UHGV virus genome: UHGV-0205600
From: a virus
Direction: 5' to 3' (one strand)
DNA: 41,458 nucleotides
How positions within the stretch are numbered: the first letter of the stretch is position 1; each line of letters begins with the position of its first letter. The notes beneath the pieces were generated by a model. It was given only the letters and a program-made list of their open reading frames with translations. It ran no database searches and was not told where the DNA came from. A program made the position numbers and the translations under genes. Of the stretch, positions 15,108 to 17,813 are shown one piece after another.

Positions 15108-15323
15108 TTAAGCGGCTTTGTGTTCCGGAGGGAACACGTCATCAAGACTGACTTTTGCGCCTAACTTGTTTAGGCATGCAACAAGAGCGCGGCATGTTTT
15201 AAGGTCTGGGAAGCGACGACCAGATTCCCAATGCCCAATAGCTCCCTGTGTGCATCCAACCGCCTTAGCAAGTGTTGTTTGAGAGATATTCAGTGACTCT
15301 CGATATTTTCGTAGGTTGCTCAT
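15108..15323 (-). CDS. cro: Cro-like repressor (non-lambda immunity type)
   Basis: 71-aa HTH protein (MSNLRKYRESLNISQTTLAKAVGCTQGAIGHWESGRR...) divergent from cI and upstream of cII; sequence differs from recalled lambda Cro. Confidence 0.7.
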   Translation of the reverse strand: MSNLRKYRESLNISQTTLAKAVGCTQGAIGHWESGRRFPDLKTCRALVACLNKLGAKVSLDDVFPPEHKAA

Positions 15324-15434
15324 ATGCCCTCCATAGTAACCATGAGACAATAATACGATATGTACTTTTGGAATGCAAACAAAAAATACATCTTGTGCAT
15401 GGATGGTTTTAGTACAGAGCGTAATAATAAGGAT
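15324..15434. promoter_or_regulatory. OR/PR/PRM-type divergent control region between cro and cI
   Basis: 111-bp AT-rich spacer between divergent cro and cI starts; operators not individually resolved. Confidence 0.5.
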
Positions 15435-16094
15435 ATGAAAATGAAATGGTATGAACTGGCTAGATCCAGAATGAAAGAGCTCGGCATAACTCAAGAGAAG
15501 TTGGCTGAAGAGCTTGGTATGACGCAGGGTGGAATTGGTCACTGGTTGCGCGGATCTCGTCATCCATCTCTTGACGAGATTGGTGTGGTGTTTAAATACC
15601 TTGGTATTGATAACGTCTCATTCAACCACGACGGTACATTTTCACCTGTTGGCGAATACTCATCTGCCCCCGTTAAAAAACAATATGAGTACCCTGTTTT
15701 TTCTCATGTTCAGGCCGGGATGTTCTCGCCTGAGCTTAGAACCTTTACCAAAGGTGATGCGGAGAGATGGGTCAGCACAACCAAAAAAGCCAGTGATTGT
15801 GCGTTTTGGCTTGAAGTTGAAGGTAATTCCATGACCGCACCAACAGGATCCAAGCCAAGCTTTCCTGACGGGATGTTAATTCTCGTTGACCCTGAGCAGG
15901 CTGTTGAGCCAGGTGATTTCTGCATAGCCAGACTTGGTGGTGACGAGTTTACCTTCAAGAAACTGATCAGGGATAGCGGTCAGGTGTTCCTACAACCACT
16001 AAACCCGCAATATCCAATGATCCCATGCAATGATAGCTGTTCCGTTGTAGGGAAAGTTATCGCCAGCCAGTGGCCAGAAGAGACGTTTGGGTGA
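15435..16094 (+). CDS. cI: CI-type prophage repressor (HTH plus S24 LexA-like autopeptidase domain)
   Basis: N-terminal HTH ([23 protein letters not shown]) and C-terminal S24 signature GNSMTAP with downstream FTFKKL lysine; start taken at MKMKWYEL. Confidence 0.8.
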
Positions 16095-16119
16095 TAGGAA
16101 TGGATGTTAAGGATTAAGA

Positions 16120-17166
16120 ATGTCAGCGATTGATCAACCTGCGCAATATGTTATCAAGTCAGAAGACGACTTTGTATCTTTTGTAACAGAAATGCTCGGA
16201 AGGAAGGATATCGACTCAAGCGACTTCACATTCCCTAACGTAGTTTTCAGTGGATGGCCAAAGATCAATATTAATGTAAAAGGCGATCCAAATAGATATA
16301 ATTCTTCATTGACTGCGTCAATGCTTTTTGGTATGGCAGAGCTTACGCATGAAATACAAAAAGCATTTACGGTAGTCAGTCACAGCACTCATAATCGGCA
16401 GAAGCTAAAAGATGCAGAGAAAGGTTTGCTGGATATTGTCTACCGAATAAGCGAAGGCTCAAGCCAAGCGGATGGTGACTCAGATCCGATTGTAAACGGA
16501 GTGGTGACAGTGTTTACTCAAGCGATAGGCAAAATGACAGGAAGGCAAGCACTATGCGCCGTCGCCGCTATCGTCTTAGCTGCCAGCACGGTAGGCTATA
16601 AGTGGATCAATGAGTACTACGAAACACAGCGACATGACCAAGATTCTCAGGTGCAATTGGTGGAAAAAAGCACCAAAGCGGTAAACGAAGCACAAGACAA
16701 TGTGCTCAAGTTGTTGATTAGCGGTCAAACAAACATTAGCAGAGAGGTTCTGGCTCACGGCGAGGATGGTAAAAGCAAGTTGCTTAAAAAGCTTGCTCAA
16801 GACTCGTCAGTTGAGAGGGTAACAATTGGTCAGAGAGTGGTAAATAGAGAACAGTTGAATACCTTAAACCAAAGACAATCAATTGATCGAAAAAAGGAAA
16901 CTAGAAGAGATAACTTTTATGTCACGGGCGTTCGTCGCTCGGGAGAAACAAATCAGGACATAAATATTGACGTCATAAGGGTTTCAAATGGTGAATCTTT
17001 CACCATAAAAACCTCAGCCGACATAACATCTACTGATGAGCTTCTTGAGTTTTTGAATGCTGTAGCCAAAGAATCAACTGTTGAAATTTCATACCTAGAG
17101 GTTGTAGAAAATGGGCACATTTCAACAGGGCAATTGATAAATATATTCCCCAGCGAACCAGAGTGA
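16120..17166 (+). CDS. hypothetical 348-aa protein in the rexAB slot, co-transcribed with cI
   Basis: Starts 25 nt after cI stop with an AGGA-type RBS; predicted central hydrophobic helix (ALCAVAAIVLAASTVGYKWI); followed by a rho-independent terminator then PL/nutL/N; does not resemble recalled lambda RexA or RexB. Confidence 0.7.
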   Translation: MSAIDQPAQYVIKSEDDFVSFVTEMLGRKDIDSSDFTFPNVVFSGWPKININVKGDPNRYNSSLTASMLFGMAELTHEIQKAFTVVSHSTHNRQKLKDAEKGLLDIVYRISEGSSQADGDSDPIVNGVVTVFTQAIGKMTGRQALCAVAAIVLAASTVGYKWINEYYETQRHDQDSQVQLVEKSTKAVNEAQDNVLKLLISGQTNISREVLAHGEDGKSKLLKKLAQDSSVERVTIGQRVVNREQLNTLNQRQSIDRKKETRRDNFYVTGVRRSGETNQDINIDVIRVSNGESFTIKTSADITSTDELLEFLNAVAKESTVEISYLEVVENGHISTGQLINIFPSEPE

Positions 17167-17175
17167 TGCACTCCA

Positions 17176-17207
17176 AACCCGGCCTCAGCGCCGGGTTTTC
17201 TTTTTCC
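17176..17207 (+). terminator. rho-independent terminator ending the cI operon (tImm-like)
   Basis: Stem aacccggc / gccgggtt with 6-nt loop followed by a T-run (ttttcttttt). Confidence 0.7.
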
Positions 17208-17270
17208 AAAATATAAACCCATTAAATACAAAGCGTTATAAAAAACTAATTATATTTAGAACATTTTGTA

Positions 17271-17299
17271 TTGACTCGATAAAGTACAAATCGTACTAT
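17271..17299 (+). promoter_or_regulatory. putative PL promoter
   Basis: -35 ttgact, 17-nt spacer, -10 tactat upstream of nutL and N; flanking repeated TACAAA/TTTGTA motifs may be operator half-sites. Confidence 0.5.
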
Positions 17300-17340
17300 T
17301 TAGCCATCAGCAGGACGCACTGACCACCATTGAAGGTGAG

Positions 17341-17370
17341 GCTCTTAAAAATTTAGCCCTGAAGAAGGGC
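17341..17370 (+). promoter_or_regulatory. nutL (boxA plus boxB hairpin)
   Basis: boxA-like gctcttaaa followed by boxB gccctgaagaagggc, matching the recalled lambda nut boxB hairpin. Confidence 0.75.
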
Positions 17371-17480
17371 AGCATTCAAAGCAGAAGGCTTTGAGTAGCG
17401 CGAAATGCAGCTGCAAGACAGCAACCGTGGAGATAAGCATCACGGCGCGTTACTCAAAGCTAACTGACAGGAGAATCCAG

Positions 17481-17813
17481 ATGGATGCACAAGCACGCCG
17501 CCGCGAACGTCGCGCAGAGAAACAGGCTCAATGGAAAGCAGCAAATCCCCTGTTGGTTGGGGTAAGCGCAAAACCAGTTAACCGCCCTATTCTCTCGCTG
17601 AATCGCAAACCGAAATCACGAGTAGAAAGCGCACTGAATCCGATAGACCTTACGGTGCTGGCTGAATACCACGAACAGATTGAAAGCAACCTGCAACGTA
17701 TTGAGCGCAAGAATCAGCGCACATGGTACAGCAAGCCACGCTGTGAAATGGGTGTGACTTGCTCAGGCCGCCAGAAGCAACGCGGAAAATCAATTCCAGC
17801 TTATTACGATTGA
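17481..17813 (+). CDS. N: antiterminator N
   Basis: MDAQARRRERRAEKQAQWKAANPLLVGVSAKPVNRPILSLNRKPKSRVESALNPIDLTVLAEYH... matches recalled lambda N, including the arginine-rich motif. Confidence 0.9.
   Translation: MDAQARRRERRAEKQAQWKAANPLLVGVSAKPVNRPILSLNRKPKSRVESALNPIDLTVLAEYHEQIESNLQRIERKNQRTWYSKPRCEMGVTCSGRQKQRGKSIPAYYD

Follow-up and report, generated by a model that had tools for sequence, protein, structure and literature searches.

In phage lambda, the slot running from the 3' end of cI to the terminator t_imm, upstream of PL, nutL and N, is occupied by rexA and rexB, two genes that are presumably carried on the same PRM/PRE transcript as cI and that specify at least one membrane-associated component (RexB is a multi-pass membrane protein). 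Even after 60 years, understanding of the Rex system is still poor. P22 SieA, HK97 gp15, T4 Imm and lactococcal Sie2009 are prophage-expressed, membrane-anchored single proteins, and genes of the Sie2009 type also adjoin the repressor gene. BstA, from the Salmonella prophage BTP1 and its relatives, is the product of one gene located just 3' of the repressor gene, presumably co-transcribed with it and provided with its own terminator; it occurs in Gram-negative prophages behind repressors of diverse types and localises to the sites of phage DNA replication (PMC8585504). The cI–N interval, which houses both rexAB and bstA, has been described as a hotspot of mosaic diversity (PMC8585504).

The 348-codon ORF that we describe here has something in common with each of these systems. 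Like rexAB, it lies between cI and t_imm, presumably on the PRM/PRE transcript, and its product is predicted to be associated with the membrane; like bstA, it is a single gene immediately downstream of a repressor gene, presumably co-transcribed with it and closed by its own terminator, and it recurs behind diverse repressors in Gram-negative prophages; like SieA and the other Sie proteins, its product is predicted to be a prophage-expressed single protein anchored in the membrane. It differs from rexAB in that there is one gene instead of two, with no sequence or profile similarity to either Rex protein and with an OB-fold and an unrecognised N-terminal domain in place of the RexA fold, and it differs from BstA in its predicted membrane helix. 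Compared with the Sie proteins, to which it shows no homology, the protein is much larger (348 residues) and comprises a large conserved non-membrane domain as well as an OB-fold; a best-conserved domain of about 140 residues is atypical for the small Sie proteins known so far. Neither the slot nor the kind of cargo in it is novel; the family of proteins and the architecture are.

The window, i.e. the whole stretch of DNA that was analysed (41,458 nt, virus genome UHGV-0205600), corresponds to Escherichia phage phi458 (OP434518.1), with 100% identity at positions 15300–17400. This temperate lambdoid phage was obtained by induction of an avian pathogenic strain of E. coli (PMC9701743). The phage has been isolated, forms plaques and lysogenises E. 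coli MC1061. In its GenBank record the ORF appears as Orf11 (UYE91744.1), a 'hypothetical protein', and the corresponding RefSeq entry is WP_001272876.1. The locus is made up as follows:

15108–15323, minus strand: cro-type HTH gene of 71 codons, an ORF with a GGAGG ribosome-binding site, divergent from cI
15324–15434, no strand: cI–cro intergenic region, positioned between the divergent cro and cI genes
15435–16094, plus strand: gene for a cI-type repressor (HTH_3 and Peptidase_S24), from Pfam and PHROG matches
16089–17175, plus strand: cargo cassette of 1.09 kb, delimited by the blastn breakpoints relative to Dewey and lambda
16095–16119, plus strand: cI–ORF spacer of 25 nt, free of a terminator, with an AAGGA Shine-Dalgarno sequence (16109–16113) 6 nt before the ATG
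16120–17166, plus strand: 348-codon ORF with an ATG start, member of PHROG 6191
17175–17208, plus strand: intrinsic terminator AACCCGGCCTCAGCGCCGGGTTTTCTTT, identical to lambda t_imm
17271–17299, plus strand: PL-like promoter (TTGACT-17 nt-TACTAT), upstream of nutL and N
17356–17370, plus strand: nutL boxB GCCCTGAAGAAGGGC, inside a block 96.6% identical to lambda
17481–17813, plus strand: lambda-like antiterminator N gene, 110 codons

The repressor gene was recognised by its matches to Pfam (PF00717, E = 8.9e-29; PF01381, E = 8.3e-11) and to PHROG 4 (E = 1.9e-62). Its candidate start codons are at 15435 and 15441; the start given in GenBank (15519) would truncate the HTH. The divergent cro-type gene carries no annotation in the GenBank record, and the gene at the homologous position in related phages is designated Cro or transcriptional repressor. 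By analogy with lambda, OR, PR and PRM are expected in the intergenic region, from which the lysogenic transcript presumably originates.

The limits of the cassette emerge from comparison with lambda and with phages closely related to phi458. The match to lambda spans positions 15684–16108 (94% identity; the C-terminal half of cI plus 14 nt), stops there, and resumes with 100% identity at 17176–17203, whose lambda counterpart is the t_imm terminator that follows rexB, to continue through nutL; the corresponding interval of lambda contains rexA–rexB. Phage Dewey, whose cI is the same, is devoid of the cassette and matches the window at 15300–16088 and 17176–17500. Dewey, 720R6, 683R2 and Louie all have the cI and PL flanks in common with phi458 at 98% identity, and the ORF is missing from them. 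The ORF replaces rexA–rexB in the exact slot, from the 3' end of cI to t_imm, and fills it alone: the interval does not hold a two-gene cassette composed of a sensor and an effector. It is a horizontally mobile prophage cargo gene (moron), being present or absent between near-identical phages, followed by its own terminator and deviant in base composition (GC content of 0.42 for the cassette, against 0.48 for the window).

The terminator stem (17175–17198) comprises nine base pairs, six of them G–C, and is followed by a T-run (−15.5 kcal/mol according to RNAfold); the hairpin begins 8 nt past the stop codon of the ORF. A sequence-only reading of the window had placed the ORF in the rexAB slot, 25 nt after cI and with its own ribosome-binding site, had seen a terminator between it and PL, nutL and N, and had called the slot a known hotspot for defence cargo expressed in lysogens. 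The coordinates listed above and the breakpoints of the lambda match bear out the first three of these claims, and the published account of the cI–N interval the fourth (PMC8585504).

The interval between cI and the ORF was scanned for transcription signals: neither a terminator nor a promoter above chance level was detected in it, and the 25-nt spacer is devoid of promoter-like sites. Five promoter-like sites were found in the region, where 5.0 are expected by chance. A hairpin located inside the ORF (16307–16323) and a promoter-like site at 16366–16395 are of the kind found at chance frequency and were disregarded. The ORF probably relies on the cI promoters. Since no terminator and no above-chance promoter separates the two genes, and since the repressor–gene–terminator layout recurs in Pantoea and Marinomonas (see below), we infer that the ORF is transcribed together with cI in the lysogen. 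Note that the 25-nt spacer moves together with the cassette behind other repressors.

The product of the ORF matches PHROG 6191, a group of unknown function, over nearly its entire length (E = 5.8e-36; residues 7–342 of 348 against positions 5–331 of the 338-position profile), and this PHROG is the only one matched by the aligned relatives (66 of 66). A word-indexed search retrieved 56 relatives from Enterobacterales, every one of them labelled 'hypothetical', while an exhaustive profile search yielded at least 930 representative clusters (50% identity) at E ≤ 1e-3, 576 of them at E ≤ 1e-10. Nearly all family clusters are 320–350 residues long, and the named sources extend to Geobacter, Marinomonas, Celerinatantimonas, Betaproteobacteria and Kiloniellaceae. 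Given the full-length PHROG match, the 56 close homologues and the 930 representative clusters, the ORF is a genuine gene and not a chance reading frame.

Unlike BstA, which carries a KilA-N-type domain, neither the phi458 protein nor any of the 66 relatives contains a Pfam domain at E ≤ 0.01. The NCBIfam search of the phi458 protein gave noise only; the weak Pfam and NCBIfam matches (fvmX3-analog, E = 0.16; FtsH_ext, E = 0.93) fell far short of the threshold, and a match to PriA (E = 1.3e-3) scored 17 bits, the cut-off being 813. No defence model of PADLOC-DB 2.0, a search that the sequence-only reading had proposed, matched the phi458 protein at E ≤ 10, and the 66 relatives produced scattered single matches (E > 1e-3), none of them consistent. 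A profile search against the PDB sequences returned nothing (best E = 2.4), and none of the PHROGs annotated as exclusion proteins was matched by the phi458 protein at E ≤ 1. Homology to the Rex proteins was rejected: when the 25-sequence profile of the family was compared by hhalign with lambda RexA, the probability was 0.05% over 12 aligned columns, and with lambda RexB it was 0.2%. The statements that the protein resembles neither RexA nor RexB and bears no assignable motif, both made from the sequence alone, are thus upheld by these profile methods. A literature search found no study of the PHROG 6191 family or of its accessions.

The homologues of PhiR12_2 and mEp332 were labelled 'T2SS GspM containing protein' by their depositors. 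This label was not reproduced by Pfam, the GspM/T2SSM models giving no match at E ≤ 1, be it for the phi458 protein or for the homologue from PhiR12_2. The phi458 protein does share with GspM a bitopic-type layout, in which a hydrophobic helix precedes a helical and beta-rich domain, but its C-terminal fold is an OB barrel whereas the periplasmic domain of GspM is ferredoxin-like.

The architecture of the protein was deduced from an AlphaFold2 model based on a 66-sequence alignment (mean pLDDT 84, pTM 0.67), which replaces a 25-sequence model with a pLDDT of 64. Four predicted parts follow one another:

16141–16533, plus strand: N-terminal alpha/beta domain (residues 8–138), pLDDT of about 90, acidic, no fold match
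16546–16608, plus strand: hydrophobic helix ALCAVAAIVLAASTVGYKWI (residues 143–163), from the Kyte–Doolittle profile, probable single membrane anchor
16612–16809, plus strand: charged helical stalk (residues 165–230), variable, from the AlphaFold2 model
16882–17154, plus strand: C-terminal OB-fold beta-barrel (residues ~255–345), from structure comparison

Conservation within the family is highest in the N-terminal domain (F43, W46, P47, G55, L96, G113, S114 and S115), which is consistently acidic. In the family alignment, no obvious catalytic motif is apparent among the conserved residues of this domain, and the proteins as a whole show no conserved motif of a toxin or enzyme kind. The stalk is modelled as two long helices reaching residue ~226 and is preceded by a linker (residues 164–184) of low AlphaFold2 confidence. 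The C-terminal domain is modelled as a five-stranded closed beta-barrel, which structure comparison of the model recognised as an OB-fold; among its best structure matches are SilF (a periplasmic metal chaperone), YgiW and the B subunits of AB5 toxins. Foldseek against BFVD gave weak OB-like matches only, none at E ≤ 1e-3. Comparison of a model with known structures, suggested by the sequence-only reading, assigned a fold to the C-terminal domain and left the N-terminal one without a match. In the phi458 clade the OB domain is acidic (pI 4.5–5.0; 4.8 in the phi458 protein), which disfavours nucleic-acid binding and makes a protein or ligand partner more likely than DNA. No metal-binding Met/His/Trp motif is conserved in this domain in the family alignment.

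The central helix was called hydrophobic on the criterion of a 19-residue window with a mean Kyte–Doolittle value of at least 1.6. One window passes in the phi458 protein (residues 145–163, mean 1.72, within an AlphaFold2 helix starting at residue 141), so that there is a single hydrophobic segment, as opposed to the several of RexB. The aligned segment reaches the same value in 58 of the 66 family members though its sequence is poorly conserved; it is rich in A, G, S and T, and ends in an aromatic/lysine belt (GYKW, FWKxW) resembling that of membrane anchors. On the Hessa scale, the sum is positive (+3.0 kcal/mol for phi458; family mean +2.2). The positive-inside rule predicts an N-in orientation for the enterobacterial clade and a C-in orientation for the distant clade, and was abandoned as a guide to topology because of this contradiction. 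The pTM of 0.67 hints at a possible packing of the N-terminal part against the C-terminal one, an arrangement at odds with a location on opposite sides of the membrane. On balance, we regard anchoring of the phi458 protein in the membrane by this helix as likely. The central hydrophobic helix noted from the sequence alone is therefore real as a hydrophobic segment; its transmembrane status is only probable, in view of the positive Hessa sum and the conflicting flank charges.

The genomic contexts of the family show how independent the gene is of any given repressor. In IMG/VR, ORFs at least 99% identical to that of phi458 lie 25–76 nt behind four types of repressor that are 19–70% identical to one another, and a copy 87% identical follows a fifth type. 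Where the C-terminus of the repressor is unrelated, a fossil of the 3' end of a lambda-type cI precedes the cassette, and a hairpin of the t_imm type closes the cassette in all five of the other carriers checked. Conversely, two repressors that are 99.6% identical (an IMG/VR prophage and PhiR12_2) are followed by family alleles that share only 25.9% identity, and for repressors at 96% identity the alleles share 45%. More distant relatives (19–62% identity) are found directly behind cI-type repressors in Pantoea, PhiR12_2, Marinomonas (30-nt gap) and marine viral contigs (20-nt gap), and a Mu-like prophage has a relative separated by one gene from an S24 protein. The repressor–gene unit of Pantoea and Marinomonas is without an internal terminator and has one at its end; a downstream early-left promoter was found in phi458 and in Marinomonas (a consensus promoter), and the scan detected none in Pantoea. 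By our tally, roughly 16 of the ~35 distinct contexts examined are repressor-adjacent.

Other copies of the gene lie elsewhere. In Enterobacter, Cronobacter and Xenorhabdus they occupy the ends of prophages, with tail-fibre, DinI-like and UmuD-like genes as neighbours; in Serratia, the gene is inserted between icd/att and int, and in another prophage it is found among baseplate genes. In a P2-like prophage of Celerinatantimonas it lies between the tail genes S and V, beside genes for ParD-like and PIN proteins, a position that we take to be that of the P2 Z/fun exclusion gene; the old/tin hotspot of P2 is documented in the literature. Finally, one copy lies outside prophages, in a metagenomic island in which PDC-S19 (E = 3e-148), the family gene, a 72-codon ORF, a NERD protein and SoFic (E = 9e-37) succeed one another. 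A scan of genome contigs with the distant clade yielded a single locus. Prophage ends next to int/att or tail fibres and the S–V interval of a P2-like prophage are classic positions for lysogenic-conversion or defence genes.

From the genomic context and the predicted architecture, we consider an anti-phage function of some kind to be fairly probable, because the cassette behaves as an autonomous unit, selected for expression in the lysogen, independent of repressor specificity, and exchanged and allele-replaced at exclusion or defence sites of prophages. The association with these contexts is also compatible with other lysogenic-conversion roles. As to the mechanism, we tentatively favour a block of phage genome entry (superinfection exclusion), since the protein is probably membrane-anchored and an entry block requires no self-immunity; the lack of this requirement would fit a cassette common to heteroimmune lambdoid, P2-like and Mu-like prophages. 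Against this reading count the size of the best-conserved domain, the borderline character of the helix, the hint that the two halves may pack together, the lack of a consistent PADLOC match and of a match to an exclusion-annotated PHROG, and the rarity of the gene in E. coli. The lysogenic transcript would start at PRM (and PRE), cover cI and the ORF and stop at t_imm; its product would be anchored in the inner membrane by the single central hydrophobic helix, and, through an action at the cell envelope, would protect the lysogen from phages that superinfect it. A membrane-embedded core, probably oligomeric, would be formed by the conserved N-terminal domain and the helix, and the variable stalk and OB module would bind an ejection component of the incoming phage or a host entry factor. 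A broader proposal, which we put forward as speculative and rather unlikely, is that PHROG 6191 represents a widespread and so far unrecognised class of phage sensors, each a single protein spanning the membrane. Their fast-evolving stalk and OB-fold would detect the phage at the envelope, and the conserved N-terminal domain, of novel fold, would execute the response across the membrane, either an entry block or abortive infection; the cassette would spread from one defence hotspot to another among lambdoid, P2-like and Mu-like prophages.

Abortive infection of the Rex kind, carried out by a single polypeptide, is doubtful in its own right and yet nearly as likely as an entry block. The N-terminal domain, then cytoplasmic, or the OB-fold would sense a phage product, and the helix would oligomerise and depolarise the membrane, so that the cell would be killed or arrested before phage release. 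The ORF does occupy the slot of RexAB, whose RexB is a membrane effector, but the protein is unrelated to either Rex protein and has to make do with a single, borderline hydrophobic segment. The A/G/S/T-rich composition of this segment would favour helix–helix packing, and the combination of a large conserved domain with a variable one recalls the effector-plus-sensor layout of many abortive systems; a conserved motif typical of toxins or enzymes is, however, lacking. The homologue found beside SoFic and PDC-S19 is in line with such a role, whereas the distribution of the family is harder to reconcile with it: an abortive system present in many unrelated prophages would have to spare each of its carriers at the time of its own induction, and no element for this purpose was noticed.

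It is less likely that the protein is a lysogenic-conversion factor unconnected with phage defence, i.e. an envelope protein that alters host physiology, for instance the tolerance of stress, the properties of the surface, the ability to colonise, or the handling of metals or ligands by means of an OB-fold in the periplasm. Moron sites also carry non-defence cargo, such as bor, lom and umuDC-like or dinI-like genes, and in several prophages the family gene itself adjoins DinI-like and UmuD-like genes. The resemblance of the OB-fold to SilF, YgiW and the AB5-toxin B subunits points in the same direction, but a metal-binding Met/His/Trp motif is not conserved in the domain. Loss of the whole phi458 prophage alters biofilm formation and virulence of APEC, an effect that was not attributed to the ORF (PMC9701743). 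Against a niche trait, one homologue resides inside a defence island, and the replacement of alleles behind identical repressors, together with the spread of the family over prophages of Gamma-, Beta- and Alphaproteobacteria and of Geobacter from very different habitats, argues for a target in the phage–host conflict. A role in modulating the prophage's own lysis–lysogeny switch or its induction, comparable to the second role reported for lambda RexA and RexB, is very improbable: many prophages have the gene in tight linkage with a repressor gene, and its neighbours often contain a Peptidase_S24 domain (cI-type or UmuD-like), but practically the same protein serves behind four repressor types and an 87% identical copy behind a fifth, near-identical repressors tolerate alleles 26% identical, and many copies lie far from immunity regions (at prophage ends, among tail genes and in the non-prophage island).

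If the protein does have an anti-phage function, the prophage-encoded defences would be joined by a new family that shares no domain with known systems and numbers at least 930 clusters at 50% identity, and the classical rexAB slot would gain a second mechanistic paradigm. The recurrence of the gene in the cI–N slot, in the P2 S–V slot and beside SoFic and PDC-S19 would then confirm the value of mining these hotspots jointly. In E. coli itself the gene is rare, being present in 18 of 5426 complete genomes.

Nucleotide comparison of Escherichia phage phi458 with lambda shows the immunity module of phi458 to be bordered by a sharp mosaic junction: the sequence from the nutL region into the beginning of N (window 17305-17500) is 97-98% identical to lambda, t_imm is 100% identical and the C-terminal half of cI (15684-16108) is 94% identical, while no nucleotide similarity to lambda was found for the N-terminal (helix-turn-helix) part of the repressor or for cro. 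In the phi458 GenBank record, cI (Orf12) starts at an internal Met, window 15519, lying within the helix-turn-helix; a start at 15435 or 15441 is preferable. The record also lacks an annotation for the divergent cro gene:

15108-15323, divergent from cI: cro gene, 71 aa, with a GGAGG ribosome-binding site

Among the relatives of the 348-aa ORF (the family), alleles are swapped within a single slot. The repressors of loci L028 and L002 (an IMG/VR prophage and PhiR12_2) are 99.6% identical, but the downstream family alleles share only 26% identity; likewise, those of L055 and L010 are 96% identical, with downstream alleles only 45% identical. Behind repressors with unrelated C-termini, a non-coding remnant of a lambda-type cI 3' end (CAGTGGCCTGAAGAGACGTTTGGGTGA) lies upstream of the cassette (the cargo unit holding the family gene), which suggests that the cassette spread via recombination out of a lambda-type immunity region:

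L026, 3925-4000: lambda-type cI 3'-end remnant
L028, 3925-4000: lambda-type cI 3'-end remnant
L030, 1224-1315: lambda-type cI 3'-end remnant

One family copy, found behind cI and two small ORFs, is broken into reading frames of 246 and 78 aa; another is 5'-truncated and adjoins a transposase fragment:

L037, 3060-4108: decayed family copy
L038, 1490-2416: decayed family copy

Six family database entries (P0005, P0006, P0044, P0046, P0047 and P0051) are 279-281 aa long, the gene callers having chosen the internal Met68. These entries are likely mis-started, since the 67 N-terminal residues that they lack are conserved across the family (I12, F43, W46, P47, G55).

At the Geobacter locus (L017, 3443-4983), the family gene is the fourth and last of four same-strand genes, adjoined by an ISL3 transposase. 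The other three (173, 146 and 189 aa) gave no Pfam or PADLOC matches; the row is possibly a multi-gene variant of the family system.

At prophage ends, certain genes recur on the flanks of the family gene: a short, convergently oriented Peptidase_S24/UmuD-like gene accompanied by a partner of ~79-143 aa, umuC-like genes and DinI-like genes. These flanks may represent a moron cluster or a functional tie to SOS:

L004, 6172-7097: prophage-end flank of the family gene
L045, 5191-6113: same
L051, 3440-4068: same
L008, 6294-7980: same

Finally, in one prophage (L054) the family gene sits among baseplate genes, directly after a 112-aa ORF that could be a second exclusion-type moron:

L054, 3488-3826: 112-aa ORF, its signal sequence (MIRPLLAVSLLISAQC...) resembling that of a lipoprotein
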